This document shows positions 7,701 to 59,011 of a stretch of DNA of 64,000 nucleotides, piece after piece. The position numbers and the translations under genes are program-made. The notes beneath the pieces are model-generated. The model did no database searches, was not told where the DNA came from, and saw only the letters and a list, made by a program, of their open reading frames with translations. Source of the stretch: Tubulanus polymorphus (Eukaryota > Animalia > Nemertea). Positions within the stretch are counted from its first letter, which is position 1; each line of letters starts with the position of its first letter. Location: assembly GCF_964204645.1 (NCBI RefSeq), contig NC_134027.1, positions 14,292,485 through 14,356,484 on the forward strand, written 5' to 3'.

Positions 7701-10700
7701 ATATTGAATTGTCGCGGGTGACAAAACCAAAATGGTGAATTGTATCGGGCGACAAAACCAAAATGGTGAATTATCGCGGGCGACAAAACCAAAATGGTGA
7801 ATTGTCGCGGGCGACAAAACCAAAAAAAGAATTGTCGAGGCGACAAAACCAAAATAATGAATTGTCGCGAGCGATAAAACCAAAATAATGAATTGTCGCG
7901 GGTGACAAAACCAAAATGGTGAATTGTATCGGGCGACAAAACCAAAATGGTGAATTATCGCGGGCGACAAAACCAAAATGGTGAATTGTCGCGGGCGACA
8001 AAACCAAAATAATGAATTGTTGCTGGCGATAAAACCAAAATAATGAATTGTCGCGGGCGATAAAACCAAAATGGTGAATTATCGCGGGTGACAAAACCAA
8101 AATGGCGAATTGTCTCGGGCGACAAAACCAAAATGGTGAATTATCGCTGGCGACAAAACCAAAATGGTGAATTGTCGCGGGCGACAAAACCAAAATAATG
8201 AATTGTCGCGGGCGATAAAACCAATATAATGAATTGTCGCAAGCGATAAAACCAAAATAATGAATTGTCGCGGGTGACAAAACCAAAATGGTGAATTGTA
8301 TCGGGCGACAAAACCAAAATGGTGAATTATCGCGGGCGACAAAACCAAAATGGTGAATTGTCGAGGGCGACAAAACCAAAATGGTGAATTATCGCGGGCG
8401 ACAAAACCAAAATAATGAATTGTCGCTGGCGATAAAACCAAAATGGTGAATTATCGCGGGCGACAAAACCAAAATGGTGAATTGTCGCGGGCGACAAAAC
8501 CAAAATAATGAATTGTCGCGGGCGAAAAAACCAAAATAATGAATTGTCGCCAGCGATAAAACCAAAATAATGAATTGTCGCGGGTGACAAAACCAAAATG
8601 GTGAATTATCGCGGGCGACAAAACAAAAATGGTGAATTGTCGCGGGCAACAAAACCAAAATAATGAATTGTCGCGGGCGACAAAACCAAAAAGAAAAATT
8701 GTCGCGGTCGACAAAACCAAAATAATGAATTGTCGCTGGTGATAAAACCAAAGTAGTGAATTGTCGTGGGCGATAAAACCAAAATATTGAATTTTCGCGG
8801 GCGACAAAAGCAAAATATTGAATTGTCGCGGTCGACAAAACCAAAATAATGAATTGTCGCTGGCGATAAAACCAAAGTAGTGAATTGTCGTGGGCGATAA
8901 AACCAAAATATTGAATTGTCGCGGGCGACAAAACCAAAATAATGAATTGTGGCGGGCGATAAAACCAATATAATGAATTGTCGCAAGCGATAAAACCAAA
9001 ATAATGAATTGTCACGGGTGACAAAACCAAAATGGTGAATTGTATCGGGCGACAAAACCAAAATAATGAATTGTCGCAAGCGATAAAACTAAAATTATGA
9101 AATGTCGCGGGTGACAAAACCAAAATGGTGAATTGTCGCTGGCGATAAAATCAAAGTAGTGAATTGTCGTGGGCGATAAAACCAAAATATTGAATTGTCG
9201 CGGGCGATCGAACCAAAATAATGAATTGTCGCGGGCGACAAAACCAAAATATTGAATTTTCGCGGGCGACAAAACCAAAATATTCAATTGTCGCGGTCGA
9301 CAAAACCAAAATAATGAATTGTCGCGGGCAATAAAACCAAAATAATGAATTATTGCGGGCGACAAAACCAGACTAATGAATTGTCGCGGGCGATTAAACC
9401 AAAATAATGAATTGTCGCGGGCCACAAAACCAAAATATTGAATTGTCGCGGGCGACGAAACCAAAAAAAATTGTCGCGGGCGCCTCAAACAAAATATAAA
9501 ACCAAAATAATGAATTGTCGCTGGCGGCAAAACCAAAAAAAGAATTGTCACGGGCGATAAAACCAAAATAATGAATTGTCGCTGGAGATAAAACGAAAGT
9601 AATGAATTGTCGCAGGCGACAAAACCAAAATATTGAATTGTCGCGGGCGACAAAACCAGACTAATGAATTGTCGCGGGCGACAAAACCAAAATAATGAAT
9701 TGTCGCGGTGAAAAACCAAAATAATGAATTGTCGCCAGCGATAAAACCAAAATAATGAATTGTCGCGGGTGACAAAACCAAAATGGTGAATTGTCTCGGG
9801 CGACAAAACCAAAATGGTGAATTATCGCGGGCGACAAAACCAAAATGGTGAATTGTCACGGGCGACAAAACCAAAATGGTGAATTGTCGCGGGCGACAAA
9901 ACCAAAATAATGAATTGTCGCGGGCGATAAAACCAATATAATGAATTGTCGCGGGTGACAAAACCAAAATGGTGAATTGTATCGGGCGACAAAACCAAAA
10001 TGGTGAATTATCGCGGGCGACAAAACCAAAATGGTGAATTGTCGCGGGCGACAAAACCAAAATAATGAATTGTCGCGGGCGACAAAACCAAAATAATGAA
10101 TTGTCGCTGGCGATAAAACCAAAATGGTGAATTATCGCGGGCGACAAAACCAAAATGGTGAATTGTCGCGGGCGACAAAACCAAAATAATGAATTGTCGC
10201 GGGCGATAAAACCAAAATAATGAATTGTCGCCAGCGATAATACCAAAATAATGAATTGTCGCGGGTGACAAAACCAAAATGGTGAATTGTATCGGGCGAC
10301 AAAACCAAAATGGTGAATTATCGCGGGCGACAAAACAAAAATGGTGAATTGTCGCGGGCAACAAAACCAAAATAATGAATTGTCGCGGGCGACAAAACCA
10401 AAAAGAAAAATTGTCGCAGTCGACAAAACCAAAATAATGAATTGTCGCTGGTGATAAAACCAAAGTAGTGAATTGTCGTGGGCGATAAAACCAAAATATT
10501 GAATTGTCGTGGTCGACAAAACCAAAATAATGAATTGTCGCGGGCAATAAAACCAAAATAATGAATTATTGCGGGTGACAAAACCAGACTAATGAATTGT
10601 CGCGGGCGATTAAACCAAAATAATGAATTGTCGCGGGCCACAAAACCAAAATATTGAATTGTCGCGGGCGACGAAACCAAAAAAAATTGTCGCGGGCGCC

Positions 10701-13700
10701 TCAAACAAAATATAAAACCAAAATAATGAATTGTCGCTGGCGACAAAACCAAAAAAAGAATTGTCACGGGCGATAAAACCAAAATAATGAATTGTCGCGG
10801 TCGACAAAACCAAAATAATGAATTGTCGCTGGCGATAAAACCAAAGTAGTGAATTGTCGTGGGCGATAAAACCAAAATATTGAATTGTCGCGGGCGATCA
10901 AACCAAAATAATGAATTGTCGCGGGCGACAAAACCAAAATAATGAATTGTCGCTGGCGATAAAACCAAAGTAGTGAATTGTCGTGGGCGATAAAACCAAA
11001 ATATTGAATTGTCGCGGGTGACAAAACCAAAATGGTGAATTGTATCGGGCGACAAAACCAAAATGGTGAATTATCGCGGGCGACAAAACCAAAATGGTGA
11101 ATTGTCGCGGGCGACAAAACCAAAAAAAGAATTGTCGAGGCGACAAAACCAAAATAATGAATTGTCGCGAGCGATAAAACCAAAATAATGAATTGTCGCG
11201 GGTGACAAAACCAAAATGGTGAATTGTATCGGGCGACAAAACCAAAATGGTGAATTATCGCGGGCGACAAAACCAAAATGGTGAATTGTCGCGGGCGACA
11301 AAACCAAAATAATGAATTGTTGCTGGCGATAAAACCAAAATAATGAATTGTCGCGGGCGATAAAACCAAAATGGTGAATTATCGCGGGCGACAAAACCAA
11401 AATAATGAATTGTCGCTGGCGATAAAACCAAAATGGTGAATTATCGCGGGCGACAAAACCAAAATGGTGAATTGTCGCGGGCGACAAAACCAAAATGGTG
11501 AATTGTCGCGGGCGACAAAACCAAAATAATGAATTGTCGCGGGCGATAAAACCAAAATAATGAATTGTCGCCAGCGATAAAACCAAAATAATGAATTGTC
11601 GCGGGTGACAAAACCAAAATGGTGAATTGTATCGGGTGACAAAACCAAAATGGTGAATTATCGCGGGCGACAAAACAAAAATGGTGAATTGTCGCGGGCA
11701 ACAAAACCAAAATAATGAATTGTCGCGGGCGACAAAACCAAAAAGAAAAATTGTCGCGGTCGACAAAACCAAAATAATGAATTGTCGCTGGTGATAAAAC
11801 CAAAGTAGTGAATTGTCGTGGGCGATAAAACCAAAATATTGAATTTTCGCGGGCGATAAAACCAAAATATTGAATTTTCGCGGTCGACAAAACCAAAATA
11901 ATGAATTGTCGCTGGCGATAAAACCAAAGTAGTGAATTGTCGTGGGCGATAAAACCAAAATATTGAATTGTCGCGGGCGATCAAACCAAAATAATGATTG
12001 TCGCGGGCGACAAAACCAAAATATTGAATTTTCGCGGGCGACAAAACCAAAATAATGAATTGTCGCTGGCGATAAAACCAAAGTAGTGAATTGTCGTGGG
12101 CGATAAAACCAAAATATTGAATTGTCGCGGGCGATCAAACCAAAATAATGAATTGTCGCGGGCGACAAAACCAAAATATTGAATTTTCGCGGGCGACAAA
12201 ACCAAAATATTGAATTGTCGCGGTCGACAAAACCAAAATAATGAATTGTCGCGGGCAATAAAACCAAAATAATGAATTATTGCGGGCGACAAAACCAGAC
12301 TAATGAATTGTCGCGGGCGATTAAACCAAAATAATGAATTGTCGCGGGCCACAAAACCAAAATATTGAATTGTCGCGGGCGACGAAACCAAAAAAAAATT
12401 GTCGCGGGCGCCTCAAACAAAATATAAAACCAAAATAATGAATTGTCGCTGGCGACAAAACCAAAAAAAGAATTGTCACGGGCGATAAAACCAAAATAAT
12501 GAATTGTCGCGGTCGACAAAACCAAAATAATGAATTGTCGCTGGCGATAAAACCAAAATGGTGAATTGTCGCGGGCGACAAAACCAAAATAATGAATTGT
12601 CGCGGGCGATAAGAAAATAATGAATTGTCGCCAGCAATAAAACCAAAATAATGAATTGTCGCGGGTGACAAAACCAAAATGGTGAATTGTATCGGGCGAC
12701 AAAACCAAAATGGTGAATTGTATCGGGCGACAAAACCAAAATGGTGAATTATCGCGGGCGACAAAACAAAAATGGTGAATTGTCGCGGGCAACAAAACCA
12801 AAATAATGAATTGTCGCGGGCGACAAAACCAAAAAGAAAAATTGTCGCGGTCGACAAAACCAAAATAATGAATTGTCGCTGGTGATAAAACCAAAGTAGT
12901 GAATTGTCGTGGGCGATAAAACCAAAATATTGAATTTTCGCGGGCGACAAAACCAAAATATTGAATTGTCGCGGTCGACAAAACCAAAATAATGAATTGT
13001 CGCTGGCGATAAAACCAAAGTAGTGAATTGTCGTGGGCGATAAAACCAAAATATTGAATTTTCGCGGGCTATCAAACCAAAATAATGAATTGTCGCGGGC
13101 GACAAAACCAAAATATTGAATTTTCGCGGGCGACAAAACCAAAATATTGAATTGTCGCGGTCGACAAAACCAAAATAATGAATTGTCGCGGGCAATAAAA
13201 CCAAAATAATTAATTATTGCGGGCGACAAAACCAGACTAATGAATTGTCGCGGGCGATTAAACCAAAATAATTAATTGTCGCGGGCCACAAAACCAAAAT
13301 ATTGAATTGTCGCGGGCGACGAAACCAAAAAAAAATTGTCGCGGGCGCCTCAAACAAAATATAAAACCAAAATAATGAATTGTCGCTGGCGACAAAACCA
13401 AAAGAAGAATTGTCACGGGCGATAAAACCAAAATAATGAATTGTCGCTGGAGATAAAACCAAAGTAATGAATTGTCGCAGGCGACAAAACCAAAATATTG
13501 AATTGTCGCGGGCGACAAAACCAGACTAATGAATTGTGGCGGGCGACAAAACCAAAATAATGAATTGTCGCGGGCGATAAAACCAAAATAATGAATTGTC
13601 GCCAGCGATAAAACCAAAATAATGAATTGTCGCGGGTGACAAAACCAAAATGGTGAATTGTCTCGGGCGACAAAACCAAAATGGTGAATTATCGCGGGCG

Positions 13701-16700
13701 ACAAAACCAAAATGGTGAATTGTCGCGGGCGACAAAACCAAAATGGTGAATTGTCGCGGGCAACAAAACCAAAATAATGAATTGTCGCGGGCGATAAAAC
13801 CAATATAATGAATTGTCGCAAGCGATAAAACCAAAATAATGAATTGTCGCGGGTGACAAAACCAAAATGGTGAATTGTATCGGGCGACAAAACCAAAATG
13901 GTGAATTATCGCGGGCGACAAAACCAAAATGGTGAATTGTCGCGGGCGACAAAACCAAAATAATGAATTGTCGCTGGCGATAAAACCAAAATGGTGAATT
14001 ATCGCGGGCGACAAAACCAAAATGGTGAATTGTCGCGGGCGACAAAACCAAAATAATGAATTGTCGCTGGCGATAAAACCAAAATGGTGAATTATCGCGG
14101 GCGACAAAACCAAAATGGTGAATTGTCGCAGGCGACAAAACCAAATGGTGAATTGTCGCGGGCGACAAAACCAAAATAATGAATTTTCGCGGGCGACAAA
14201 ACCAAAATATTGAATTGTCGCGGTCGACAAAACCAAAATAATGAATTGTCGCGGGCAATAAAACCAAAATAATTAATTATTGCGGGCGACAAAACCAGAC
14301 TAATGAATTGTCGCGGGCGATTAAACCAAAATAATTAATTGTCGCGGGCCACAAAACCAAAATATTGAATTGTCGCGGGCGACGAAACCAAAAAAAAATT
14401 GTCGCGGGCGCCTCAAACAAAATATAAAACCAAAATAATGAATTGTCGCTGGAGATAAAACCAAAGTAATGAATTGTCGCAGGCGACAAAACCAAAATAT
14501 TGAATTGTCGCGGGCGACAAAACCAGACTAATGAATTGTGGCGGGCGACAAAACCAAAATAATGAATTGTCGCGGGCGATAAAACCAAAATAATGAATTG
14601 TCGCCAGCGATAAAACCAAAATAATGAATTGTCGCGGGTGACAAAACCAAAATGGTGAATTGTCTCGGGCGACAAAACCAAAATGGTGAATTATCGCGGG
14701 CGACAAAACCAAAATGGTGAATTGTCGCGGGCGACAAAACCAAAATGGTGAATTGTCGCGGGCAACAAAACCAAAATAATGAATTGTCGCGGGCGATAAA
14801 ACCAATATAATGAATTGTCGCAAGCGATAAAACCAAAATAATGAATTGTCGCGGGTGACAAAACCAAAATGGTGAATTGTATCGGGCGACAAAACCAAAA
14901 TGGTGAATTATCGCGGGCGACAAAACCAAAATGGTGAATTGTCGCGGGCGACAAAACCAAAATAATGAATTGTCGCTGGCGATAAAACCAAAATGGTGAA
15001 TTGTCGCGGGCGACAAAACCAAAATAATGAATTGTCGCTGGCGATAAAACCAAAATGGTGAATTATCGCGGGCGACAAAACCAAAATGGTGAATTGTCGC
15101 GGGCGACAAAACCAAAATAATGAATTGTCGCTGGCGATAAAACCAAAATGGTGAATTATCGCGGGCGACAAAACCAAAATGGTGAATTGTCGCAGGCGAC
15201 AAAACCAAATGGTGAATTGTCGCGGGCGACAAAACCAAAATAATGAATTGTCTCGGGCGATAAAACCAAAATAATGAATTGTCGCAAGCGATAAAACCAA
15301 AATAATGAATTGTCGCGGGTGACAAAACCAAAATGGTGAATTGTATCGGGCGACAAAACCAAAATGGTGAATTATCGCGGGCGACAAAACAAAAATGGTG
15401 AATTGTCGCGGGCAACAAAACCAAAATAATGAATTGTCGCGGGCGACAAAACCAAAAAGAAAAATTGTCGCGGGCAACAAAACCAAAATAATGAATTGTC
15501 GCGGGCGACAAAACCAAAAAGAAAAATTGTCGCGGTCGACAAAACCAAAATAATGAATTGTCGCTGGTGATAAAACCAAAGTAGTGAATTGTCGTGGGCG
15601 ATAAAACCAAAATATTGAATTTTCGCGGGCGACAAAACCAAAATATTGAATTGTCGCGGTCGACAAAACCAAAATAATGAATTGTCGCTGGCGATAAAAC
15701 CAAAGTAGTGAATTGTCGCGGGCGATAAAACCAAAATATTGAATTGTCGCGGGCGATCAAACCAAAATAATGAATTGTCGCGGGCGACAAAACCAAAATA
15801 TTGAATTTTCGCGGGCGACAAAACCAAAATATTGAATTGTCGCGGTCGACAAAACCAAAATAATGAATTGTCGCGGGCAATAAAACCAAAATAATGAATT
15901 ATTGCGGGCGACAAAACCAGACTAATGAATTGTCACGGGCGATTAAACCAAAATAATGAATTGTCGCGGGCCACAAAACCAAAATATTGAATTGTCGCGG
16001 GCGACGAAACCAAAAAAAAATTGTCGCGGGCGCCTCAAACAAAATATAAAACCAAAATAATGAATTGTCGCTGGCGACAAAACCAAAAAAAGAATTGTCA
16101 CGGGCGATAAAACCAAAATAATGAATTGTCGCTGGAGATAAAACCAAAGTAATGAATTGTCGCAGGCGACAAAACCAAAATATTGAATTGTCGCGGGCGA
16201 CAAAACCAAAATAATGAATTGTCGCGGGCGATAAAACAAATATAATGAATTGTCGCAAGCGATAAAACCAAAATAATGAATTGTCGCGGGTGACAAAACC
16301 AAAATGGTGAATTGTATCGGGCGACAAAACCAAAATGGTGAATTATCGCGGGCGACAAAACCAAAATGGTGAATTGTCGCGGGCGACAAAACCAAAATGG
16401 TGAATTGTCGCTGGCGATAAAACCAAAATGGTGAATTATCGCGGGCGACAAAACCAAAATGGTGAATTATCGCGGGCGACAAAACCAGAATAATGAATTG
16501 TCGCTGGCGATAAAACCAAAATGGTGAATTATCGCGGGCGACAAAACCAAAATGGTGAATTGTCGCGGGCGACAAAACCAAAATGGTGAATTGTCGCGGG
16601 CGACAAATCCAAAATAATGATTCGTCGCGGGCGATAAAACCAAAATAATGAATTGTCGCAAGCGATAAAACCAAAATAATGAATTGTCGCGGGTGACAAA

Positions 16701-16815
16701 ACCAAAATGGTGAATTGTATCGGGCGACAAAACCAAAATGGTGAATTGTATCGGGCGACAAAACCAAAATGGTGAATTGTATCGGGCGACAAAACCAAAA
16801 TGGTGAATTATCGCG
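1728..16815 (+). repeat. 31-bp tandem satellite (~15 kb), consensus AAACCAAAATAATGAATTGTCGCGGGCGACA
   Basis: Continuous tandem units with recurring variants (TGGTGAAT, TATTGAAT, GTAGTGAAT). Internal palindrome TTGTCGC-gg-GCGACAA. Confidence 0.98.
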
Positions 16816-17213
16816 AATGCTTTGGTTTTTCGAACGCGTTTTCCGGTTGTTATACGTCTACTTCGTTTACGACCTTTTATTGATTTTGGGTTTGAGGTAG
16901 ATGGTCTTTTTAAGCTTCGTTTGATAATGCGACCCATTGTTTCGATGCCACGATCTTTGATGGCTGTCGCGATATTCTTACCGCCTACCACATCGCTGGC
17001 TACGTGTAAACCAGTTCTCAGTAAATGAGGAACCGCTTGCTTGGCCATATTTTTTAGTAGTGGAATAGCTGGACGAGCCAACCCGCCCAAGACTGATGCA
17101 AATCCAGCACCGCCTTGTACGGGGGATGCCGTGTACACGTCAATACCCGAACCGCATTGGTTCATGTAATATTTACAACAAGCATCCCGATCGATTTCGC
17201 AGAGAGCCCTCAT
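16816..17213 (-). CDS. Polinton basic core-like protein (PW-like), C-terminus truncated by satellite
   Basis: YYMNQCGSG...QGGAGFASVLGGLARPAIPLL motif followed by an Arg/Lys-rich tail. Runs into satellite at 16815. Confidence 0.7.
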
Positions 17214-18124
17214 AGCAATAAATTCTTCTTTTTGAAATGCAGAACCAGGTTAACTTTGCCCTTTCTGAAAACGGGGATTCTTCCGGATTCGGTCCTAATA
17301 AAGACTTCTATAGTTTGAAAATTCCGTCTTTGTAGCGGAAAATATTGTAACTTGGTAAATTCTCGACCAACAATTTTACCAAAATTTCTCGGATTCAAAT
17401 CGATCAGACGTAAGAGATTTGCGCTTTGATGTCCGACCAGCTGTGGTTCGATAACATCTGTATATACCATCAAATTATGATAATCGACGTTCTGCGGGTT
17501 GCAGTGACCTCGATGTATTTGTAAACTGTTTTACTATCGGATGAATCTGACAGTACAGGACCGTGTATTTTAGAACCTTGACGACGAACTGCGGGTTGCA
17601 GTGACCTCGATGTATTTGTAAACTGTTTTACTATCGGATGAATCTGACAGTACAGGACCGTGTATTTTAGAACCTTGACGACGATCTGATATATCTTCGT
17701 TAATCGGTATATTTTCTTTAAAACCCAAGATCCACGCAATATCGTTCGTAAAAGTTATTGAACAGTCGTCATAAAATCGGATACTAACTTTATGACTTAG
17801 TTCATCGAATGCAAGAACTATCTTATCGTCGTACCATTTGTTTAACTCTGCCTGTATAGCGACAATTAATTGGTTAATTGTCAAATAGCGACCCGTGGGT
17901 ATATCGAGATAATGAGTTCCGTGCTCAGACGACGTACATTGAAATCTTCCATTGTTCACGTTATTGAAATCAGCCATAAAGTTTATTTGATGTAAAGCGC
18001 AAAACCATTTGCCTTGAAGTGAAATCGGTGTTCGTAATCGGACTTTAAAACTATGTCGCGTATTATCGGGATAAATATCAGTGCTAGCATCGCTTTTGAG
18101 ATACACGTAAAAATCCTGACTCAT
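17210..18124 (-). pseudogene. Minor capsid protein (penton), interrupted by tandem duplication
   Basis: N-terminal DFYVYLKSDAS..YPDNT..SFKVRL..W.CAL and C-terminal MVYTDVIEPQLVG...LLR...QYFPL...IEV.I...LHF. The two halves are in the same frame, separated by a duplicated segment carrying stops. Confidence 0.8.
17492..17684. repeat. Perfect ~96-bp tandem duplication (period 97) within penton gene
   Basis: 17492-17587 = 17589-17684. Confidence 0.9.
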
Positions 18125-19203
18125 GGTAATTTCTTGATATCTCGAGCGTTCACCCAAGAATTGAATTTATCGGGATAGTTATACCACTTTACCAAGTATT
18201 GTTTTCGAGCGCCTTTACCTCGAGTTTTAATTATCGACTCGATCTTATACGTTTCATCCTTTTTATTGAATTTTATCAACTCGTAACCATAAAACACGCC
18301 ATCTATTGTTACGTCTTGTAAATCTTTAATCTTGTATACAGGTGGTTCACGCATAATTCTTTTCGTAACGACAAACAACTCAGTACTCCAACCGGGTAAA
18401 TAGCCTTTTTGGAATTGACCTTTGAGTTCGCTTATTCGAACAGTGTCGCCAACGCGAAACTTAAAATTCACGCGTTTTTTACTTCGGATTGTACCGTATA
18501 GATTCTTGAAAACTTTGTGCGCGTTTAACTCGTTGACATCGTTTGGAGCCATTTTTATACTACGATGAAACGATTTATTGTATGACGCTACTATATCTTT
18601 AAGCAAATCGATATATCTGTATGAATTTCTATGCGAAAATATCTTATACATTTTCGATTTTAAAGTACGTATCCATCTTTCGATTAAAGCGCATTTCACT
18701 TCGTTTTTACTTTGGAAAAAACGTACGCCCTCGTTTTTCAGATACGCCTGCGTTTTTGAACCGACAAATTCTGTGCCTGAATCCGATTGAATAACGCTAG
18801 GTTTCCTAATCTTGAAAATCTTTTTAAAACCATCCACAACGGTAGAATTAAATTTATTTTTTAACGGTATAGCGAACGCGTATCTAGACAATACATCGAT
18901 AGCCGTCAATAGAAATTTGTAACCGTCGTTGTGTTTCGAAATATTCGAAACGTCGCACAAGTCGACCTGAAATTGCTCGTTCACTCGATAGGCTATAGTT
19001 TTGTTTCTCGGAAATCTCTTTCGCACTTTGGCGTGTAAAGTGTGAACTTCTTGTTCGGTTAACCAGTCTCGTATCTCACGTAAAGAGATATTTTTGTTTT
19101 CTTTTTTACAAATCCGTAGTAATGTATTTGCGTTTGAAAAACTTCCTTCTTTGTCGACGCCATAATATTGATTCGCCAGGAACCTTTTCTGTTCGGCTTT
19201 CAT
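18121..19203 (-). CDS. Retroviral-like (rve, DDE) integrase with C-terminal chromodomain
   Basis: FQVDL...LLTAIDVLSRYA...IQSDSGTEF...IERWIRTLK; chromodomain YKIESII...QYLVKWYNYPDKFNSWV. ORF intact. Confidence 0.95.
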   Translation of the reverse strand: MKAEQKRFLANQYYGVDKEGSFSNANTLLRICKKENKNISLREIRDWLTEQEVHTLHAKVRKRFPRNKTIAYRVNEQFQVDLCDVSNISKHNDGYKFLLTAIDVLSRYAFAIPLKNKFNSTVVDGFKKIFKIRKPSVIQSDSGTEFVGSKTQAYLKNEGVRFFQSKNEVKCALIERWIRTLKSKMYKIFSHRNSYRYIDLLKDIVASYNKSFHRSIKMAPNDVNELNAHKVFKNLYGTIRSKKRVNFKFRVGDTVRISELKGQFQKGYLPGWSTELFVVTKRIMREPPVYKIKDLQDVTIDGVFYGYELIKFNKKDETYKIESIIKTRGKGARKQYLVKWYNYPDKFNSWVNARDIKKLP

Positions 19204-19376: not shown

Positions 19377-19901
19377 TTATTTGGAACAAAGAATGGTATA
19401 GAATAGAACTTCTTCATAGGCTTCCCGTAGATCGTAGAGTTTTCTGGCACCCGACAATATTAAAGTACCGCCGTTATGTACTATACATTTTATCCCGTTT
19501 TCGCACTTGTAAACAAAACCGGGAAATATTTCGGGATTGTAGTCACCGGGAACTGTTTTGGAAAGTTCTATTAATTCCACACGTCGATCAGTTTTTACAA
19601 CTCCAGTCATAGTTTGTATTTTGAAATTAGTCAAGCTCACAATATAACCCATCTTTTGCAACAAACGAGCGAATTGTCTTGTACTACGCCGACTGTTAAA
19701 TTCGCTTTTACATCCGGTCACGACCATTTTACCATTTACGAACAATAGACAATTACCCTGTATACTTCTGTGTTTCCATATTAATCCACTAAACTTTCGG
19801 GGGTCATAGACGACATTACACAATTTTCCTGCAATATCGGCTAGATTTAGACGGCAATTCAGATTACCCGTAGACGCAACGTTTACAACTTCAATCATCA
19901 T
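19377..19901 (-). CDS. TATA-box-binding protein (TBP)-like, intronless, 174 aa
   Basis: Both TBP core repeats are recognisable. VNVASTGNLNCRLNL..YDPRKFSGLI..LLFVNGKMVVTGCKSE..SR...RQFARLLQKMGY..NFKIQ..YNPEIFPGFVY..G.LILSGAR..EAYE aligns by eye to TBP NIVSTVNLGCKLDL..YNPKRF..IFSSGKMVCTGAKSE..RKYARVVQKLGF..DFKIQ..YEPELFPGLIY. Confidence 0.92.
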   Translation of the reverse strand: MMIEVVNVASTGNLNCRLNLADIAGKLCNVVYDPRKFSGLIWKHRSIQGNCLLFVNGKMVVTGCKSEFNSRRSTRQFARLLQKMGYIVSLTNFKIQTMTGVVKTDRRVELIELSKTVPGDYNPEIFPGFVYKCENGIKCIVHNGGTLILSGARKLYDLREAYEEVLFYTILCSK

Positions 19902-19921
19902 TAATGTACCAACTCGATCGC

Positions 19922-20188
19922 AAATGAGACCCACATATCCAATCGACAATTAATATCGATTTATCTTGACCCAAAAATGAAACCCGTACATCCAATTAAC
20001 TATTAGTGTTACGTCAACTCGGTCACAGCACGCCGCGATTAACTCTTAATATCGCGTCACAAAATGAAACTGCTATATCCATTCCACTAATGATATCATT
20101 GCAAAACCCACTGACCGTTGACATGCCAAACACGAATAATGAAGCCCGCATATATCATATCAATCCGCCACAAATGAAGCCAGGTCAT
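19922..20188. promoter_or_regulatory. Five dispersed copies of an AAATGARRCC...ATATCCA-like motif upstream of the TBP-like gene
   Basis: Copies start at 19922, 19973, 20061, 20138 and 20172 (the last two are partial). Function is inferred only. Confidence 0.45.
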
Positions 20189-20231: not shown

Positions 20232-20912
20232 TTAAAAGGATAACCAGTTTGTGAAATTCACATTGCCATCACGCACTTCACGCAGTCCGGATCCGCTCTG
20301 ATCATACTTTGGTTTCTTCCTCTTTGGAGACAACGACGTATCTAAATCTACGGTAAGTTCACCTTTGATACTTCTCTTTAACGTTTTATTCGAAATAAAA
20401 CTCAATGGTACGTTCAACTCGTTAAATGCAGATATATATTTATCTAGGCCGATATATTCTTGATCCATTTTAGTTTGTACTAACGACATGTGTAAAATAT
20501 CGTCAATGTTGCTTCCACGAATTAGATTGTCCTTGTAAATCAGTTCGCCTTTATCATTCCATTTCAAAATTCCTGGATTATCTTAAAAAAATGCTAATAG
20601 GGATTTACATTTTTTCCTAAATCTTAACGGTAACCGATCAATAATTTTCTGCGTAGTATATTTGCCCGAGATTTCTTTAATATCTTGTGTCGTTTGGTTA
20701 ATGTCCTTTTCTGTAGACGATTTATGTATTTCTTGCTGCAATAACTGATTATACTTTAAGTATTTGAGATCGTCGGGTATTTTGTTATCCGTTAGAGGGT
20801 TGTAGGTAGCGGGTGTTTCTTTTTCTTGTCCACGTTCTTGACTCGCGATAAAAGCTTGTATCGAGGGTAACATGGAATCGGGTAAAATGATTAACTTTTC
20901 AACGTTCTTCAT
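20232..20912 (-). pseudogene. Conserved Polinton protein with an in-frame premature stop
   Basis: ORFs 20583..20912 and 20232..20567 are in the same frame: LPLRFRKKCKSLLAFF*DNPGILKWNDKGELIYKDNLIRGSNIDD. C-terminal QSGSG motif. Confidence 0.65.
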
Positions 20913-21292
20913 GCTATTGCCTTATCTACTATTCGGTTTGCGGCGTTCGTTAAAACAGACGTCAGTATAGGTTTCAAAAGTGGTAGTAAAATGAATGGCA
21001 GAAATCCACCTTTTTGCGAAATTATTCCTCGTTTATGTTTAATGGCTATCGAATTGTTGGCCAACATGCGTATGTAACGCTTATGTTGTTTCAACACGCG
21101 TTTATCTTTGTCGCTATGTTTTATATTCCCGCCTAAACTGTTTTTGGATATCTCGCATACGCACTTGATTAAGTCTGACGGAGCCGATTCTATCAACGCT
21201 CGACGTTGTTTCTTATTACATTTACCCAACACGTGTAAATGATGTATATATTTTTTCACTCTTTGTAACGAGTTGTTTTTACGCGGCGCCAT
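20909..21292 (-). CDS. Polinton virion protein with adenovirus pX-like QKGG/FLP motif
   Basis: ...LIKCVCEISKN.L.GN...QKGGFLPFILLPLL: putative adenain cleavage site followed by a hydrophobic helix. Confidence 0.7.
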   Translation of the reverse strand: MAPRKNNSLQRVKKYIHHLHVLGKCNKKQRRALIESAPSDLIKCVCEISKNSLGGNIKHSDKDKRVLKQHKRYIRMLANNSIAIKHKRGIISQKGGFLPFILLPLLKPILTSVLTNAANRIVDKAIA

Positions 21293-21330: not shown

Positions 21331-21981
21331 TTAATGAATTTTCTTTGTTTTGTATATTATATGGTATTTATCGCTAGGAAAAATTCTAGTTCTCAAACGC
21401 CATCTATCATCAGTTTTTGGTTTAAAATCCAGTAAAAGATAACCGTGGGGTTCCATGGTAGCGTCTCTAAAGGCCGCTTCAATTTCGTTTTTCAAACCGG
21501 CTTGTTGAGCGAGAACGCGAACTTGATTTCTATCTCGCGCATTTTTAAAAACGACAATATAATGCGAGTTTAAACTAATCGTTCTAAACTCTTTGCCTTT
21601 CGGGAAAATATTTTGTACAATCGTAATAACGCTGATGTTGCGATGATGGGATCCTCGTGTATACAAAGAAGCTAACGCGTTATTACCCCCTACTTCATTC
21701 ATCAGATCGTCGACTATAATTAATGTACGTTTACTGCCATCTATTTTGTCGTAGAGTTCTCCGGAAAAACCCTCTACAAACAGCACTCCAAACTTTTCCA
21801 ATTCATTGAACATTTCGGGTTGCGCCTCCGCGTAACACCAATATATCTTATCGGGATTTTTTTCGACAAGATTCTCCGTTATAACTTTTTTGACAAACAC
21901 ACTTTTACCGGAACCCGTCGGTCCTGCGACTATCATCGTGAATGGGTGGGATAAGTATCTCGGGCCATTATACTCTGCCAT
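21331..21981 (-). CDS. A32/FtsK-like DNA packaging ATPase
   Basis: Walker A GPTGSGKS, Walker B LIIVDD, RGSHHRNISV..QN motif. Confidence 0.93.
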   Translation of the reverse strand: MAEYNGPRYLSHPFTMIVAGPTGSGKSVFVKKVITENLVEKNPDKIYWCYAEAQPEMFNELEKFGVLFVEGFSGELYDKIDGSKRTLIIVDDLMNEVGGNNALASLYTRGSHHRNISVITIVQNIFPKGKEFRTISLNSHYIVVFKNARDRNQVRVLAQQAGLKNEIEAAFRDATMEPHGYLLLDFKPKTDDRWRLRTRIFPSDKYHIIYKTKKIH

Positions 21982-22080
21982 CTTAGTGTTTTAGTGTTTT
22001 AAGTGTTTTAGCTACGAATGAAAAACACTTTTAATAGAAACAAGGGGGTTGTCAATATTTTAAAAATACAGTACACGCAT

Positions 22081-22355
22081 TTTATAGTTTACTAAATTCT
22101 TTATTTTCACTAAACGAGGTTCTAACAATTTTCAATTTTGAAAAAATGAGGTTTGAACTTTTTTAATAGGAAAATACTATACGGTTTTGACAAAAAATCA
22201 TAAGTTATATTTGAGGTTTAGATTTTTGCGATTTACGCAATTTATAGTTTACTAAATTCTTTATTTTCACTAAACGAGGTTCTAACAATTTTCAATTTTG
22301 AAGAAATGAGGTTTGAACTTTTTTAATGGGAAAATACTATACGGTTTTGACAAAA
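22081..22355. repeat. ~115-bp direct duplication (period 160) in the divergent intergenic region
   Basis: 22081-22195 matches 22241-22355. Confidence 0.85.
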
Positions 22356-22444
22356 TAACATTAGTTAAAAATACGGTTTGACTATTTTTCGATTTTAGAT
22401 ATTCGAGGTTTGAATATGTTTTCATAAACGCTATTTGACTTTTT

Positions 22445-22812: not shown

Positions 22813-25800
22813 ATGTATTCATGCCAATACTGCCCGTTGACCTTTGTCAATGAACTGGGTTTGGAACAACACCAACAACTTCACGTTGGTAAGAAGGGGT
22901 TCAAGTGCTTGAGCTGTTGCAAAGCATTTGCGTGTGCGCGCGATTTAACGCAGCACACGTTTATATGTATGACACCCCAACCGGTTCAACAACAGATGCC
23001 TGTAGCTTCGGTCAATCCGGTAAGTAGCTTACAATCGCTCATTTCATTAATTAATTATTTTAATGTATTCTTAAATACCCGGTTTATTTATTTATTTTTT
23101 TTTTTCAGCAAATATGGGACTGCATAATATGTGGTCTTAACTTTGCTGACCAGCAAACACTGACACGTCATCTGAGTTCCCACTTTGGAACTACCGATGG
23201 TTGGCAATGCGTCACATGTGGTAAGGTGTTTGCGCGCAAAGATAATTTGAAGCGGCACGCTAAAACATGTAAGGGACACGCTGTACAACACGTCGTATCG
23301 CGGTCTGTAGTACCGGATACATCGGAGGCTAAACCGGTAAGTTTTGAAATTATGAGTTACAAAAGAAAGAAAAACAAACAAACAAACAAAAAGACCCGTT
23401 ATTTATATTCTATATATTTGTCTATTGAAGGGGTCCGAGTGCATCAAATGTGGCAAGGTGTTTGGACGCGTAGACAACATGCGCCGACACGTCAAAACGT
23501 GTAAAGGATCCGTTGAACCACCGCGTGTAAACCCTCTACCGCGCGTAAACCCTCCGCGTGTGAACCCACCGCCACATCCTGATTGTCACCCCATTCACCC
23601 CGGGACGTCTAACTCTGTAAGTAATCGAACTCATGAATTGCTAAAAAACTCATTCATCTTTAATATAATCCAGGTATTTTTTCTATTTTCTAGCATTCTT
23701 GCGACATATGCGGTAAAACGCTATCTCGTAAAGATAGCTTGGTAAGGCATATGAGGACGTGTCAGCCTAACAAGTCATCGACCTTACCACGACTGCCACC
23801 ACCACCACCAGCCGTACGGGAGTTTACATGCTCGCGATGTTCGGATTCGTTCCATTCGATCGCCGAGTTAAAACGTCACGGCGAGGTATGCGCTCCACGG
23901 CCCTCAACATCGAAACGCCCTATTGACGATATTGATGATGAGGAAGAAGAAACGTGTTCGAAGCGCCCTCACTTTGAAAACCCCGACGAAATAATACGGG
24001 GCAATATTAAACTGGTCAGGGTAAGTAATCGAATACATCAAAATCGTTTAACATAATGACGAACAAAATGACAAAAAAGAATGTTTCCATTATTTTACAG
24101 AACGGCGTACAACACAGCAAAAAATTCAACATGAAAACTGAGTTGTACAAGGTTACCGTGATACCACATGACGACCCGAATAACGACCAACTCGATGCGC
24201 AGGATACACAAGCCACCGTCCGAAATTACCTAACCGACGTTTTAGCGGCAATTAGTGAAATGCTGGACGCTCGTTCGAGTGACATGATTCGTATATCTAT
24301 CGAGCACGCAGAACTCAATGGAAACATTGAATTTCCATTCGTACCGTTGGACGAACTAACGGTCGAATATATACTCGATAGGTTAATACGTGTTCTACAG
24401 TCGAATGAGGATTTGTCTTTGGATGGATTAATTTTCCATTGTACATTCATTCGAATGCCGCTAGGTGGTGTCCGTCGTAAACGCGTCGAGGTAAATTTTG
24501 AGTCGTTTAGACAAAACAAACGCTGTATTGTCTCGATCGATAATGACGATGATTTGTGTCTCGCTAGGTCGTTGGTGGTGGCAAAGGCGCGTGCGGATAA
24601 TGACCCCCGTTATGATACCATACGTAAATGCGACCGACCGACGCAGAAGGATGCGGCGATTGCCCTACACACGAATGCCGGTGTGCCCCAAGGCAAGTGT
24701 GGATTGCGCGAGTTGGACGTATTTTCGAAACAATTATCCGAATACTACATAATTGTTGTAACGGGGGATCATATCGCGTATCACATTTTATACGAGAACA
24801 ATCGCAATGTGTTAGACGCTCAGGGTGTAAATGCCAAAAAACTTATATTATTATATACAGATGGCCATTTCGATGTAATTACATCGATGGCTTCATTTAC
24901 CTGTCGCGTATACTATTGCTATAATTGTAAAAAGGGGTATACGAATACAGAACGACATCGCTGTACCGATAAATGTAGACTTTGCTTTGGGGATTGCGTA
25001 GAACAACGGGGAAATTATTTGTGTATAAAATGCAATATCTATTTTAAATCGGAAGCGTGTTTAGCTAGACACTGCAGACCAAGAGCAGACGGGGTAAGCG
25101 TATGCGATTCGAGAGCGCGATGTTTACAATGCGGGTCTATTGTATCTAGAAAGAAACTTGATCCTAAATCTCACGACTGCGGTCAAAAATACTGCAGTTC
25201 TTGTAAAGAGCAAAAGCCTAGCGGCCATCTTTGCTACATCGGGGTCGCCAAAAGTCAGGATCACGTGGTTTCTGAGGAACAGGGTAACCCTCATACACTA
25301 ATTAACGCGTATTTGGATGCCGATAAGGCTGGCGATGAGCTAAAATATAGAAAGTTCATCGCATTCGATTTCGAAACAACGACTGTGGAATCGAACCACG
25401 TTGTAGTATTGGGCATAGCGCATAGAATATGTCAAATGTGTAAATGGTCGAAACGGACCCCTGACTCGGTTTGCGATTATTGCGGTAAGCATGAACACGT
25501 GTTTAAAACGGACTCTGAATTCTGCGAGTGGTTGTTTACGGAAGAGAATAGGGGCGCCATTGTTTTCGCGCATAATTTTCAATCCTTTGACGGTTACTTT
25601 ATTCTTCAATATTTGGTGTCACAAGGTATATTACCAGATATTGTACCAAACGGCGGGAAAATAATGACTATGACCGTCACACATTTGGACATAAAGTTTT
25701 TGGACACGTTGAATTTTCTACCAATGAAACTCGCTAAATTACCCGAAACACTAGGTATTCCCGAGTTGAAAAAGGGCTATTTTCCGTATAAATTCTGCAC

Positions 25801-27898
25801 TCGCGAGAATATTGATTACGTCGGACCTATTCCCGATGTAGAATATTACAATCCCGACGGTCTAAGTTCGAGCGAAAGGTCTGATTTAATAAAGTGGCAT
25901 AGCGATCGGCAGTCGGAACATTTCATTTTTGATATGCAACGCGAGTTGGTCGAATACTGTCGTTCAGATGTGGATATTCTGATGCAATCGGTCGTAAATT
26001 TTCAACATCAATTCTTTGCTCTTTCGGCTGTTGATCCATTTCGTAATAGCATCACTATAGCATCGGCGTGCAATGTGGCGTTACGAACAAACTTTTTGAA
26101 ACCGACAACAATAGGGCTAATCCCTCCGGGCGGTTATAAACCTAATGCAAAATTTTCCAAGATGGCAATTAACTGGTTGAAATGGGTATCCACAACGAAT
26201 GACATACGAGTCCAACACGCGTTGAACGGCGGCGAAGTATCGATTGACCGCTTTAAAGTAGACGGTTATCACGCCGAATCCAATACCGTGTACGAATTTC
26301 ACGGTTGTTTATATCACGGATGCCCTAAGTGTTTCAAAAATCCGGATTTGATATCTCCGGTACGACCCGATCGTAAATTCGGTGAATTATATCAGGCCAC
26401 ATTAGAAAAAACATCTAAAATTAGAGCTTTGGGTTACAATTTGGTAGAATTTTGGGAACACGAATATCGTGACTTGGTTAAAGAAAACCACGCGTTTGCA
26501 GATTTTGTCAAGAAATCTGATATTCTCGATCCATTGCAACCACGTGACGCATTTTTTGGAGGTCGTACGAACGCGATAAAAATTTATCGCAAAGCCGAGG
26601 GTGAAGAAAAAATCAAATACATCGACATATGCTCGTTATACCCGTACGTCAACAGTCGTTGCAGTTATCCAATCGGTCATCCGACTATTGTGACTGAAAA
26701 TTTCCGCGATATTGAAAATTATTACGGGTTGATAAAGTGTAAGGTTTTACCGCCTCGGGGTTTATATCTACCAGTGCTCCCATATAGATCGGGTGGGAAA
26801 TTGACTTTCCCATTGTGTCGAACGTGCGCTAATGAAAGCAATCAGCGCGAAAAGTGTTATCACTCGGATGATGAACGTTCGATAACGGGTACCTGGGTAA
26901 CTTTAGAGGTACAAAAAGCAGTGAAACTTGGTTATAAGTTATTAGATATATATGAAATTTGGGATTGGGAAACTAACGAAACGGGTTTATTCGAGGATTA
27001 TATAGGAAAATTCCTCAAAGTTAAAACTGAAGCTAGTGGCTGGCCGGCTAAAGATATGTCTCGCGAACAGAAGGATAAATTCATTTCCGATTATTTAGAA
27101 AGAGAGGGTATCCAACTCGAAGAAGATAAGATTAAGAAAGCCAAGGGGATGCGAACAGTCGCGAAATTATGTTTAAATTCGATGTGGGGTAAACTCGGTC
27201 AAAACGAAAATAAGACGACGGCCAAATATATTTCGGACCCCGGGGAATTATACAGAATGCTTTTGGATGAAACTTTAGAGATAAGCGATCTGTTGTTGTG
27301 TAATGACGAGGTGCTAAGAGTGCATTACAAAAAACGCGAAGAATTTGTTGAATCGACAAACAAAACCAGCGTCGCTTTAGCAGCTTTCACAACGGCTCAT
27401 GCGCGGCTTATTCTTTATAGTTATATGGAGAAATTAGGGGAACGAACCCTATACACGGATACCGACTCTATCATTTATAGCGTGAAACCTGGTGAATGGG
27501 ATCCGCCAACCGGCAATTTTTTGGGTGATATGACCGATGAATTGGTTGATAAATACGGGGAGGGGTCGTTTATTTCAGAATTTGTTTCGGCTGGACCCAA
27601 AAATTATGCATATCGGGTATTCAGTCCTAGAGATAATGAATTCTCGACTGAATGTAAGGTTAAAGGGATCAATTTGAATTTTCGAAACAAGCAAATTGTA
27701 AACTTTGGTTCCATGGTGGATATAATTGTCGAAGAAAAGTACGACCATCTTTACATATTAAATCCCGACAAAATCAATAGAAAGATCAAGGACTGCTCTA
27801 TTTACAATAGAGACGAACGTAAAATATATCGCGCAGTTTATACTAAACGAGCTTTCGACCCCGCAGATCGGTATAACACGCTTCCGTACGGATATTAA
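22813..27898 (+). CDS. Spliced zinc-finger + protein-primed DNA polymerase B (~1581 aa). Exons 22813-23019, 23109-23336, 23431-23616, 23694-24020, 24101-27898
   Basis: Four GTAAGT...AG introns, all phase 0, join seven C2H2/C2HC fingers in frame to pPolB. pPolB motifs: OTU-like CLAR...GHFD, exonuclease AFDFET/HNFQSFDG, VSR-like VDGY..YEFHGC.YHGC, polymerase DICSLYP, KLCLNSMWGK, YTDTDS. Confidence 0.88.
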
Positions 27899-28406: not shown

Positions 28407-28492
28407 CCCGCCATCTTGGATGACGTCACTTCCGGCCGCCATCTTGGATGACGTCACTTCCGGTATGACGTCACTTCCGGTGTGACGTCATC
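28407..28492. promoter_or_regulatory. Tandem CRE/ATF-ETS-YY1 motif cluster
   Basis: 4x TGACGTCA, 3x CACTTCCGG, 2x CGCCATCTT. Confidence 0.7.
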
Positions 28493-28759
28493 CTCCTCAC
28501 TCCTCCTCCCTCACTCCACTGTGGCCCCATAGTGACATCATGTAACTACTGGGCGAGTCGCGATTGCTACTATCATCCGGTGTTATCTTTCAGTAAGTAA
28601 TTTTAAGTTTAAAATAGGACGGAGAGTGCATAGGTATAATCTACGCGGAGCGAATGCGTGTTATATTGCTATCAGAATTCTACATTTCAATTAGAAGCAG
28701 TTAGATGTCGAATCTGATAGAAGATGAATTTTATGTGCGAAAAAAAAGTGGAAAATATG

Positions 28760-29005
28760 TAAATAATAATAATAACAATCAACAGAATTACAAAAGGGTT
28801 TTCGACGAAAGTCAGAAAACCCTAATTATAATAATAATAATAATAATAATCAACAGAATTACAATAGGGTTTCTGCGAAAGCAGCAGAAACCCTAATAAT
28901 AATAATAATCAGCAGGAATACAATTGGGTTTCTGCGAAGGCAGCAGACACCCTAATAATCACGCGGATATCAATAGGGTTTTCTGTGAAATAACAGAAAA
29001 CCCTA
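28760..29005 (-). mobile_element. Four stacked HINE-like 5' heads (hairpin + (ATT)n)
   Basis: Repeated AGGGTTT(T)C...GAAA(A)CCCTAA hairpins separated by AAT microsatellite. The outermost (28954-29005) is the reverse complement of 36938-36990. Confidence 0.6.
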
Positions 29006-29520
29006 ATTAACCCCTTCATTTAAATAGCACAATACGAACAAAGTGAATAAATAAATAAACGGTCGCAGTGCATCCATATCACTTCCAAGAAGAACATGCA
29101 CCTTGACATCAAGTCAAAGTTGAACAGGTAAATATATTTTAGTCTATGAACAACTAGATCAGGGATGAGATGCAAGATTCTGAAATTTTCACATTTTTAC
29201 ACAAAAATGTAATTTTTAGAAATTTTCACATTTTTCACATGCATCTTAGTAAAAAATGAAAAACAATTCTCGCACGCTCGTTTTTATTTCTCATTTTTTA
29301 TGAGTTTCACTCCTAATTGAAATAGAAATTATAGTTATTTTCATATTTTTTCATTTTTTACTCACTCGCCCTTTCAACCTTTAATCTGAAAGCCTATTAC
29401 CCCTATTACTCTTAAAATATTCATATACATGAATAAAATATATATGAATAACATATAAATGAATAAAATATAAATGAATAAAATGTGTCATATCAATTTT
29501 TTTAAAAATTTAGTATTAAA

Positions 29521-32500: not shown

Positions 32501-33554
32501 AAAATCATATTCATACAGAAAAGTTAATGGTAACTCAAGAAGATAAATATAATAATGTAGTTCATTATAGAATGTTGAAGTTTTATCTAAAACAAGGAAT
32601 GATCCTAAAAAAGTACATAGATATATTTCATTTAGTCAATCTAAATGGTTAGAAAAATATATAGATTTTAACACCAAACAGAGAACTGAAGCTAAAACTG
32701 ATTTCGAGAAAGATTTCTTCAAGTTAATGAATAATGCATTCTATGGTAAGACTTGTGAAAACATTAGAAATAGAAATGATTTTGAGTTAGTAAGTAATGG
32801 TAAAAGAATTAGACATTTACAAACATACCCTAAATTTATTGGTAACAGAATATATGATGAAAATTTAGCCGCAGTTAAAATGAGAACAAGTATGAAGTTC
32901 AATAAACCTATTTATAATGGTGCTTCAGTTTTTGAATTATCAAAATTACTAATGTATAAATTTTACTATAACGTATTACAACCTCATTTTGGGGAAAAAC
33001 ATATAGAAATATTATATTTTGATACAGATTCTTACATATTAAAGATAAAAACTAATGACATAACTGATGGTTTAAAAACATTAAAACATCATTTTGATTT
33101 CAGTAATTATCCTAAAGATCATGAATTGTTTAGCAATGATAATAAAAAAGTTCCTGGTAAATTCAAAGATGAATTAGGTGGTGAAGAAATGATTGAATTC
33201 ATCGGTATTAGATCTAAAATGTATTCATATAAAACTAAAACTCATGAATCAAAGAAATTGAAAGGAATTACTAAAAGTGTAGTAGAAAAGAATATTCATT
33301 TCAAAGATTACATCAATTGTAACATCAATGAAGAAGTTAGAAAACATAAGATGAGATGTTTAAGATCTGAAAATCATGAAATGTTTATTGAAGAGATAGA
33401 GAAGATAAGTTTGAATCCTTTCGATGATAAAAGATATATTTTAGATGATGGAATTGATACAGTTGCTTATGGTTGTAATTTAGATGAATACTTACAATTT
33501 AAAAGAGAAGAAACAAAAGAGAACGAGATAATGAAAAGAATTCTAACGTGTTAA
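29521..33554 (+). pseudogene. pPolB with N-terminal Zn fingers, OTU-like and endonuclease VII domains; several stops/frameshifts
   Basis: YYCPTC...RHNKTKTH; NVQN.DDKCFLW; YGDFES; KVRDHDHLNGKFRGAAHEACN (EndoVII); HNLSGYD; *IDANNLYGWAM; KLMNNAFYGK; YFDTDS. Confidence 0.9.
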
Positions 33555-33583
33555 TCAAATTTTAATAAAAATATGTATTATAA

Positions 33584-33946
33584 ATGGAGAGTAAACAAAC
33601 ACACAGTGAGAACAACAAATTATTTCTAGATAGAATAAAAGATACTTCAAATGTCAAATCAGTAGATTATAAATTTAAGAAGTTAAAAGAATTAATAATC
33701 AATAAGAAATATCTAATTACAAATATTGATACAGTTACTAACAAATATGGAGATAAATTAGTTATACACTTAGAATATGAAGGATTAAAAGGAAATACAT
33801 ATAAATTCAGAACATATTTACCAGACAGATTTCATAGATTATCAAGTGAAGATTTAGAAGAATTATGTTCTGGAGATTTCTATTTCGTATATAAGGGTAA
33901 GAATGAGAAAGGGCACCATGAAATAGATTTCGAATTAGAAATGTAA
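33584..33946 (+). CDS. Conserved small Polinton protein (possible OB-fold ssDNA-binding)
   Basis: Intact TAAATG ORF after pPolB; homologue at 56366..56716. The fold is inferred from the FKKL..L...Y.I...V.NKYG...YLP.RF pattern. Confidence 0.6.
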   Translation: MESKQTHSENNKLFLDRIKDTSNVKSVDYKFKKLKELIINKKYLITNIDTVTNKYGDKLVIHLEYEGLKGNTYKFRTYLPDRFHRLSSEDLEELCSGDFYFVYKGKNEKGHHEIDFELEM

Positions 33947-33951
33947 AATAA

Positions 33952-34707: not shown

Positions 34708-34723
34708 TTTTTTCACTATATAA

Positions 34724-35080
34724 ATGAATATAACTGTTGGACCGAGTATATGTTTTGGGTTTGATTTTAAACGTGAGTAAGAAATGAAATTTAACATTAC
34801 TGATGTAATTATACATATTAGAAATATTGCATTTTCTAATGAAACAACATTTGAGTATGAAAAAACAATAGATAAAGAAACTTTAAATGTAGAAAAGATT
34901 ACTAATTTAATTAGAGAATCTTTAAGATTTTATGAATTAGATGAAGATTTTATCATCGATGATATTAAAAAAATAATAATTGAAATATATACAAATGAAA
35001 CTAGTAATGAAATAAATGTTGATTTAATCATAAATAAGTTAACTAAATATTTTGAAGAAAGTAATTTTTTTGATAAATAA
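34724..35080 (+). pseudogene. Hypothetical acidic protein with in-frame stop
   Basis: Intact homologue at 55282..55638. Confidence 0.65.
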
Positions 35081-35302: not shown

Positions 35303-35326
35303 ATGCGTAATTATTTTACTAAATAA

Positions 35327-35750: not shown

Positions 35751-35770
35751 TAATTTTTTTTGCTAAATAA

Positions 35771-36205: not shown

Positions 36206-36221
36206 TTTTTTAATTATATAA

Positions 36222-43770: not shown

Positions 43771-43836
43771 AATTGTTAGATTGTTGAGCATTTGAAACCA
43801 CTGCTCAAGTGAGCATGGTGTCCCTGGACCCCTAGT

Positions 43837-46617: not shown

Positions 46618-46623
46618 CTTATT

Positions 46624-59002: not shown

Positions 59003-59011
59003 CAGCTATAG

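Follow-up and report, generated by a model that had tools for sequence, protein, structure and literature searches.

Does an animal Polinton encode a TATA-binding protein (TBP) of its own, and what would such a protein do? To our knowledge, the working assumption is that Polintons rely solely on host transcription factors. Canonical TBP bends the TATA box on binding it and recruits TFIIB; it has four intercalating Phe residues and both minor-groove Asn residues (N69 and N159). The question is raised by a stretch of 64,000 nucleotides of the Tubulanus polymorphus genome, referred to here as the window. A sequence-only reading of it had pointed out a TBP-like open reading frame (ORF) embedded among Polinton genes and had proposed that its product either retargets host RNA polymerase II (Pol II) to the promoters of the element or acts as a decoy.

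The TBP gene and its product

The ORF is as first described: intronless, 174 aa long, intact from ATG to TAA, and with both TBP repeats (two PF00352 matches, E=2.1e-32). It reads on the minus strand only, as the plus frame at 19377-19901 contains stops. The best sequence match in the PDB is the human TBP core (1cdw, E=3e-31), with the yeast core also at about 1e-30. An AlphaFold model obtained with a 29-row alignment (pLDDT 97.9) has an intact saddle and superimposes on 1cdw with a TM score of 0.97 and an rmsd of 1.1 Å. Profile and structure thus agree on the TBP fold.

Residues are given here in yeast numbering, transferred by a colinear alignment through a fungal sequence (P0027). Three intercalating Phe residues are retained, namely, F99, F116, and F190 (F37, F54, and F126 in the protein's own numbering), and the fourth, F207, is His (H142), exactly as had been read from the sequence. 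With Thr (T97) at N159, the canonical Phe/Asn set is incomplete, and so is the pair of TFIIB-contacting glutamates, of which E188 (E124) is present and E186 is replaced by Asn (N122). V71 is Ala. Like the cellular TBPs (human 1cdw and yeast 1ytb), the window TBP has the two-repeat saddle, three of the four Phe residues, N69, L114, E188, and a basic helix 2. It differs from them in having no N-terminal extension and in the residues at positions 207 and 186, and its identity to them is 35%. Further differences from cellular TBP, at N159, V161, V203, L205, and M104/I106/P109/A113, run through the family described below.

The element that carries the gene

The TBP gene lies in a defective, left-truncated Polinton/adintovirus copy (Table 1), in which three hallmarks of these elements are found: a protein-primed PolB (pPolB), an rve integrase, and a packaging ATPase. 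In the order of transcription, the minus-strand block consists of the ATPase, the 127-aa basic ORF, the interrupted ORF, TBP, the integrase, the penton-like gene, and the small basic gene; the integrase is the next gene downstream of TBP, 173 nt away. The view that TBP sits among Polinton genes of the same strand therefore stands as far as the integrase downstream and the ATPase upstream are concerned, but no major capsid protein or cysteine protease gene is in view in this copy, because its left arm is replaced from 16815 by a 31-bp satellite. The penton-like gene, a putative penton by its position and style of sequence, has no Pfam match; its look-alikes belong to Mollusca and Preplasmiviricota clusters at 0.97-0.98. 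The truncated gene next to it presumably resembles the cupiennin-like class of Starrett et al. (2021). Searches of PHROGs gave nothing useful for the 8 neighbor proteins. A Pfam profile search of the remaining part of the element reveals neither a TFIIB nor an RNA polymerase gene; a viral TFIIB-like partner may have been encoded in the missing left arm. In the available part of the work of Starrett et al. (2021), adintoviruses, Polintons, Mavericks, and MELD viruses likewise have a pfam03175-type pPolB, an rve integrase, an FtsK/A32 ATPase, and penton-like and small basic virion genes (PMC8502044).

Table 1. Features of the TBP-bearing element (positions in the window)
Feature	Position	Strand	Remarks
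Small basic virion-module gene, 5' part only	16816..17213	-	Cut by satellite
Penton (minor capsid)-like gene, two pieces	17210..18124	-	Broken at 97-bp tandem duplication (17485-17688)
rve integrase with C-terminal chromodomain, intact	18121..19203	-	PF00665 2.5e-10, PF00385 1.7e-8
TBP-family gene, core-only, 174 aa, both repeats	19377..19901	-	Intact frame, ATG to TAA
Five spaced copies of degenerate motif, core RGYYTCATTW	19922..20181	-	Candidate enhancer/promoter array
Conserved-looking ORF, pieces of 109 aa and 85 aa	20232..20912	-	In-frame stop at 20583-20585
127-aa basic ORF	20909..21292	-	Homolog directly after family TBP in record P0352
A32/FtsK-type packaging ATPase, intact	21331..21981	-	PF04665 1.1e-6, Walker motifs
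160-bp tandem duplication, TATAAA in each unit (22086, 22246)	22075..22395	-	Candidate promoter of minus-strand block
Four predicted zinc-finger exons	22813-23019, 23109-23336, 23431-23616, 23694-24020	+	All phase 0, GTAAGT donors
pPolB	24056..27898	+	PF03175 E=9.4e-50, polymerase motifs
Right terminal region, ends in ACTACT at 28550	28408..28550	.	Repeated words

Predicted splicing joins the zinc-finger exons in frame to pPolB at 24101, which would give the polymerase a 316-aa N terminus with about seven C2H2/C2HC fingers (the start of exon 3 was taken from the printed sequence). At the right end, many reads have other sequence before 28551, indicating that a different repeat begins there. 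Within the 64-kb window, this terminus, ending in ACTACT, has no partner, either as an inverted repeat or as a 6-bp target duplication. Positions 28408-28493 contain dense repeats of TGACGTCA, CACTTCCGG, and CCGCCATCTT, which are CRE-, ETS-, and YY1-like words; the number of units differs between reads.

Long arrays of the 31-bp satellite, in both orientations, occupy positions 1728-16815, 39208-42680, and 43836-44127, and it is the first of these that truncates the TBP-bearing element on its left side. The flanks at 643-1727 and 37051-38131 are 96% identical and inverted. A second, very AT-rich element of about 8 kb (28760-37005; about 23% GC) has inverted repeats at 28953-29007 and 36937-36991 (55/55 identical) and a fragmented divergent pPolB with an endonuclease VII-like stretch. 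At 44996-63000 there is more AT-rich Polinton-like DNA, with an A32 ATPase at 44996-45514 and an integrase that occupies two frames at 45516-46617; parts of the neighboring elements recur there in inverted orientation. No TBP is found in the second element or in the other AT-rich Polinton-like elements of the window.

A family of core-only TBPs

A phmmer search with the window TBP ranks many proteins of roughly 170 aa higher than cellular TBP (best 150 of 3573 matches); the nearest relative among the matches listed is P0002, with 46-47% identity. The 29-row family profile finds further members (best 120 of 2463 matches). The family includes Crassostrea virginica proteins annotated as "TBP 2-like" (a cluster of 34 members), 3 Pinctada proteins, and, on large contigs, further clusters with 198, 84, and 66 members, many of them truncated, as is expected of a repeated element. 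Accessions of family matches include XP_022316630-34 (C. virginica), KAJ8307840 (Tegillarca), and KAK3105251 (Pinctada). A word-index protein search with a single TBP sequence yielded 31 candidates and no family member.

In trees built from a 170-column alignment with long branches, where the clade rests on signature residues and the family rows were picked partly with a profile built from the family itself, the family comprises 35 of 71 chosen rows (support 100/98) and 21 of 50 rows under LG+C20 (SH-aLRT 99; 21 rows were dropped for speed). An unselected set of 151 rows, including the top 150 matches, splits 35 versus 116 at 96 in FastTree. Outside the family clade are the rows of cellular and archaeal TBPs, two TRF2-like rows, and four that are viral or virus-like. 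The phylogenetic comparison that the sequence-only reading had called for, with cellular TBP, TRF2-like proteins, and giant-virus TBPs, thus puts the window TBP in a family of its own. As judged from their sequences, the core-only TBPs of about 170 aa are a widespread family distinct from cellular, TRF2-like, giant-virus, and archaeal TBPs. Raw identities of the window TBP to the family (26 to 46%) and to cellular TBP (23 to 38%) overlap.

These results bear on the simplest explanation, that the gene is a one-off retrocopy of host TBP or TRF2 inside the window copy. The gene is intronless, and the contigs that cover it in three read runs are within 0 to 2 letters of the window and may represent the same locus, both of which would suit a retrocopy. 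However, cellular TBPs are on average 71% identical to each other, far from the 23 to 38% seen here, and the GC3 of 0.34 and CpG o/e of 1.45 of the gene match those of other genes of the element. Because the window TBP groups with the core-only family, apart from cellular TBP and the TRF2-like rows, it is not a host retrocopy; this reading is largely refuted and deserves hardly any credence.

Other divergent TBPs differ from the family in specific ways. TRF2 (TBPL1) is another TBP paralog of animals that has diverged and whose DNA face is altered; the two rows identified as TRF2-like by their residues (P0008 and P0033) branch separately and carry Trp at F116, where the family has Phe in 107/107 representatives. 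Another candidate for TRF2, P0236, was rejected, as it keeps all four Phe residues. The TBPs of giant viruses (Nucleocytoviricota) and mirusviruses also represent a viral TBP fold, with BFVD matches at TM scores of up to 0.80; they are only 7 to 19% identical, and the 4 rows tested fall outside the family clade. In the available parts of the sources, giant-virus and mirusvirus TBPs are described as having lost the host-adapter surfaces, often in the presence of a viral TFIIB (PMC7221094, PMC11410667).

Several single proteins are of separate interest. The "TBP-like" protein of Sparus aurata (P0089), which is outside the family, has Thr at both N159 and V161, so that either the change arose in parallel or this is one more element-borne TBP. 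A member of the family from a bacterial metagenome-assembled genome (P0213; Sedimenticola sp., 9.8-kb contig) is probably misbinned host or element DNA. The sole match in the phage collection is the annotated TATA-box-binding protein of the archaeal virus HRTV-9 (MZ334505.1:31343-31849).

Polinton genes next to other family members

Synteny with Polinton genes in other genomes, another of the suggested checks, is seen in 2 of the 10 extended records that were compared with the window proteins. In P0078, from Tegillarca granosa, the family TBP is fused to the N terminus of a Polinton integrase, in the gene order of the window; its integrase part matches the window integrase with E=1e-20. P0078 belongs to a distant subclade, so the tie between TBP and these genes extends beyond the window copy. 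In P0352, a homolog of the 127-aa ORF comes after the family TBP (score 90, z 16.7, 0/300 shuffles), a homology that BLASTP of the whole record missed. We infer that most family members reside in Polintons, and among the mollusc paralogs labeled "TBP2-like" some are probably genes of such elements.

Searches of other collections gave no further neighborhoods of this kind. Among viral contigs there were 0 family TBP loci, and one search gave three more distant viral TBPs. One of these three, L002, adjoins an NCLDV capsid gene. A metagenome match, L001, was rejected as a family TBP, being a chance match in a bacterial gene. Genome contigs yielded 54 loci, nearly all of them archaeal TBPs, and no family TBP locus with context; the 34 matches to longer TBP fusions are cellular TBPs by name and score.

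Viral TBPs as such are established in herpesviruses and several families of large DNA viruses, according to the available part of PMC11410667. The available part of Starrett et al. (2021) has a "TBP" label in the legend of a MELD-virus figure, undiscussed, in the section on non-animal datasets; there TBP is only a map label, with no analysis of a family or of residues, unlike in the present work (PMC8502044). The readable text of Supplementary Fig. S2 of that paper, on animal adintoviruses, contains no TBP label. The word TATA does not occur in a coral polintovirus paper (PMC11131425) or in bioRxiv 10.64898/2026.06.19.733378, nor does Polinton occur in PMC7221094. No description of a Polinton TBP family was found in the literature searched, a scope that leaves out most subscription papers and the Repbase reports.

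Residue pattern of the family

Residues were counted in 107 family representatives of at least 160 aa, leaving out cluster members and shorter rows. On the DNA side, N69 (103), V71 (100), and T215 (98) are mostly kept. The intercalating residue F116 is invariant; F99 is Phe in 90 and Tyr in 15 representatives, F190 is kept in 87, and F207 is kept in 80 and His in 18. Other DNA-face positions have changed uniformly: N159 is Thr in 103, V161 is Ser or Thr in 103, L205 is Thr, Ser, Cys, or Asn in 91, and V203 is His or Asn in 88 and Val in just 1. Asn is found at V122 in 46/107 and at T124 in 51/107. The surfaces that face host proteins are better preserved, with E186 in 89, E188 in 101, R137 in 103, R141 in 104, and Lys or Arg at K145 in 92 representatives; E93 is seen in just 6.

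Against this background, the two motif changes singled out in the sequence-only reading have different meanings. The change of QN to QT is real, with Thr at N159, and is no quirk of one copy, since it is the state of nearly the whole family. The change of YEPE to YNPE, Asn at E186, is equally real and represents a minority state, found in 4/107. Both N122 and H142 of the window TBP are common to P0002; as this full-length relative is only 46% identical, they do not reflect decay of the window copy. By these residues, the subclade of the window TBP has drifted further from the canonical state than the rest of the family.

Among known viral TBPs, a parallel on the DNA face is ORF24 of KSHV, a beta/gammaherpesvirus vTBP that acts on late genes with host Pol II and reads a TATT box. 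It has Asn at V122, T124, and V161 and Ser at L205 (PMC12529657 Table 1), so the family and ORF24 share the same polar shift of the DNA face, as far as the available part of that source goes. There, ORF24 is described as large, with its own Pol II-binding domain and a six-protein viral complex and with the TFIIB glutamates absent (PMC12529657); the family is core-only and mostly keeps these glutamates. In what remains of the element, the 174-aa core is all there is of the TBP, and both the herpesvirus-type Pol II-binding extension and the partner vPIC genes are absent. According to the available part of Ravarani et al., it is through the two glutamates that TFIIB/Brf is contacted, and the described viral TBPs have lost both them and the N-lobe basic patch (PMC7221094). 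The pattern seen here appears to be new: the DNA face is changed in the same way across 107 representatives, while the TFIIB glutamates and helix-2 arginines are kept, unlike in the described viral TBPs.

Candidate promoters and the motif array

The RGYYTCATTW array lies within a 330-nt noncoding stretch upstream of the TBP start, which holds 5 of the 6 motif matches in the 11.7-kb element. The best 10-mer count of 5 in this region, which was chosen after inspection, was reached in 0/100 region shuffles, as compared with 0/100 for the 11-mer and 3/100 for the 12-mer. In the tandem duplication, the nearer TATAAA is 105 nt upstream of the ATPase start and the second copy is 160 nt further up; this word is a canonical box and could be read by host TBP. 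No word is shared above chance upstream of the 8 minus-strand starts in this one decayed copy: for shared 5-, 6-, and 7-mers, 1551, 687, and 1803 of 2000 random draws, respectively, did equally well. Several genes overlap the stop of their neighbor, so a few promoters may serve the whole minus-strand block.

Copies in the host reads

Read data came from 4 runs, representing at most 3 samples and 2 studies, none recorded as RNA. All 30 bins are covered in all 4 runs, and most reads are 90 to 99% alike, which indicates that related element copies exist. Bin 19616-20013 has the lowest depth in 3/4 runs, namely, X4 (8 versus 24-88), X1 (105 versus 154-409), and X3 (12.8 versus 14-212), and not in X2, although such dips may stem from read filtering. 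One X3 contig skips 19204-20197, that is, the TBP gene and the motif array, at a depth of 38.8. The low depth and this contig suggest that some element copies in the host are without the TBP gene. The same depth, 38.8, is seen for a contig whose integrase has an internal deletion, so the TBP-less contig probably derives from a decayed copy.

Possible functions

A changed DNA face combined with preserved host-facing surfaces is the expected look of a specificity factor that borrows host TFIIB. We lean toward the view, suggested by the residue pattern, that the window TBP is an altered-specificity promoter factor that uses host TFIIB and Pol II on the promoters of the element. The protein would bind an AT-rich, noncanonical element on the viral genome and recruit host TFIIB and Pol II, and this recruitment would turn on the block of packaging, capsid, and integrase genes, presumably late. 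Since the window copy is defective, the gene was most likely at work in an active parent element, and the window TBP, which lacks one of the intercalating Phe residues, one of the TFIIB glutamates, and V71, may be a weak binder of DNA or TFIIB. The initial proposal that a core-only TBP retargets host Pol II is thus favored by the element-borne core-only gene, the family-wide DNA-face changes, and the retained TFIIB glutamates, whereas the lack of a shared upstream word does not fit it.

The main rival is a decoy, in which the TBP would read no promoter and, through its kept convex and stirrup surfaces, would titrate host partners (TFIIB, Mot1/BTAF1, TAF1, TFIIA, and Brf1), so that host transcription is damped or viral promoters are protected against the eviction of TBP. 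The partner-facing residues R137, R141, and E188 are indeed the best kept, many DNA-face and backbone residues differ, and the minus-strand genes share no upstream late box. We consider the decoy unlikely, as the DNA-face changes are fixed rather than scattered (T159 above all), and F99, F116, N69, and V71 are conserved; such fixation suits a change of ligand more than the loss of one. The protein might also bind viral DNA to other ends, such as Pol III-type initiation via Brf, autoregulation at the five-copy motif, or, during replication or packaging, bending of the terminal repeats. According to the available part of PMC7221094, Brf1/Brf2 make use of the TFIIB glutamates and of the basic patch as well. 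The nonrandom motif array adjoins TBP upstream and is lost along with the gene in one variant. Yet the downstream genes are protein coding, with AATAAA words after TBP and after pPolB, and the motif is nearly confined to one spot of the element, which makes such roles quite improbable.

A still weaker case is that of dispensable cargo, an old captured TBP with little effect in some Polinton lineages and on its way out here. It would account for the low depth and the TBP-less variant in the reads, the absence of TBP from the other elements of the window, the extra losses of canonical residues in the subclade of the window TBP, and the three broken features next to the gene. Against it, the frame is intact and of full length across more than 1 substitution per site to the nearest relative, the length of the family is tightly kept (median, 172 aa), and the TBP-less contig points to a decayed copy, not to a fit lineage without TBP; we regard this as very unlikely.

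An extension of the altered-specificity reading would add a trigger. Speculatively, the spliced zinc-finger region of pPolB would bind the five-copy motif and turn TBP on, producing an early-to-late cascade. This would describe a widespread animal Polinton family with a one-protein late switch, an altered-specificity TBP working with unmodified host TFIIB and Pol II and triggered by polymerase-encoded zinc fingers, a possibility that we regard as doubtful. If it is true, no smaller viral pre-initiation system would be known, and nature would have supplied an orthogonal TBP.

Implications

That some mollusc genes annotated as "TBP2-like" are likely element-borne affects studies of TBP evolution. 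For the elements themselves, the TBP is one small soluble protein that offers a direct handle on the timing of Polinton capsid and packaging genes. If the altered-specificity reading is true, the viral-TBP strategy would reach midsize integrating viruses, and the family would supply natural altered-specificity TBPs.
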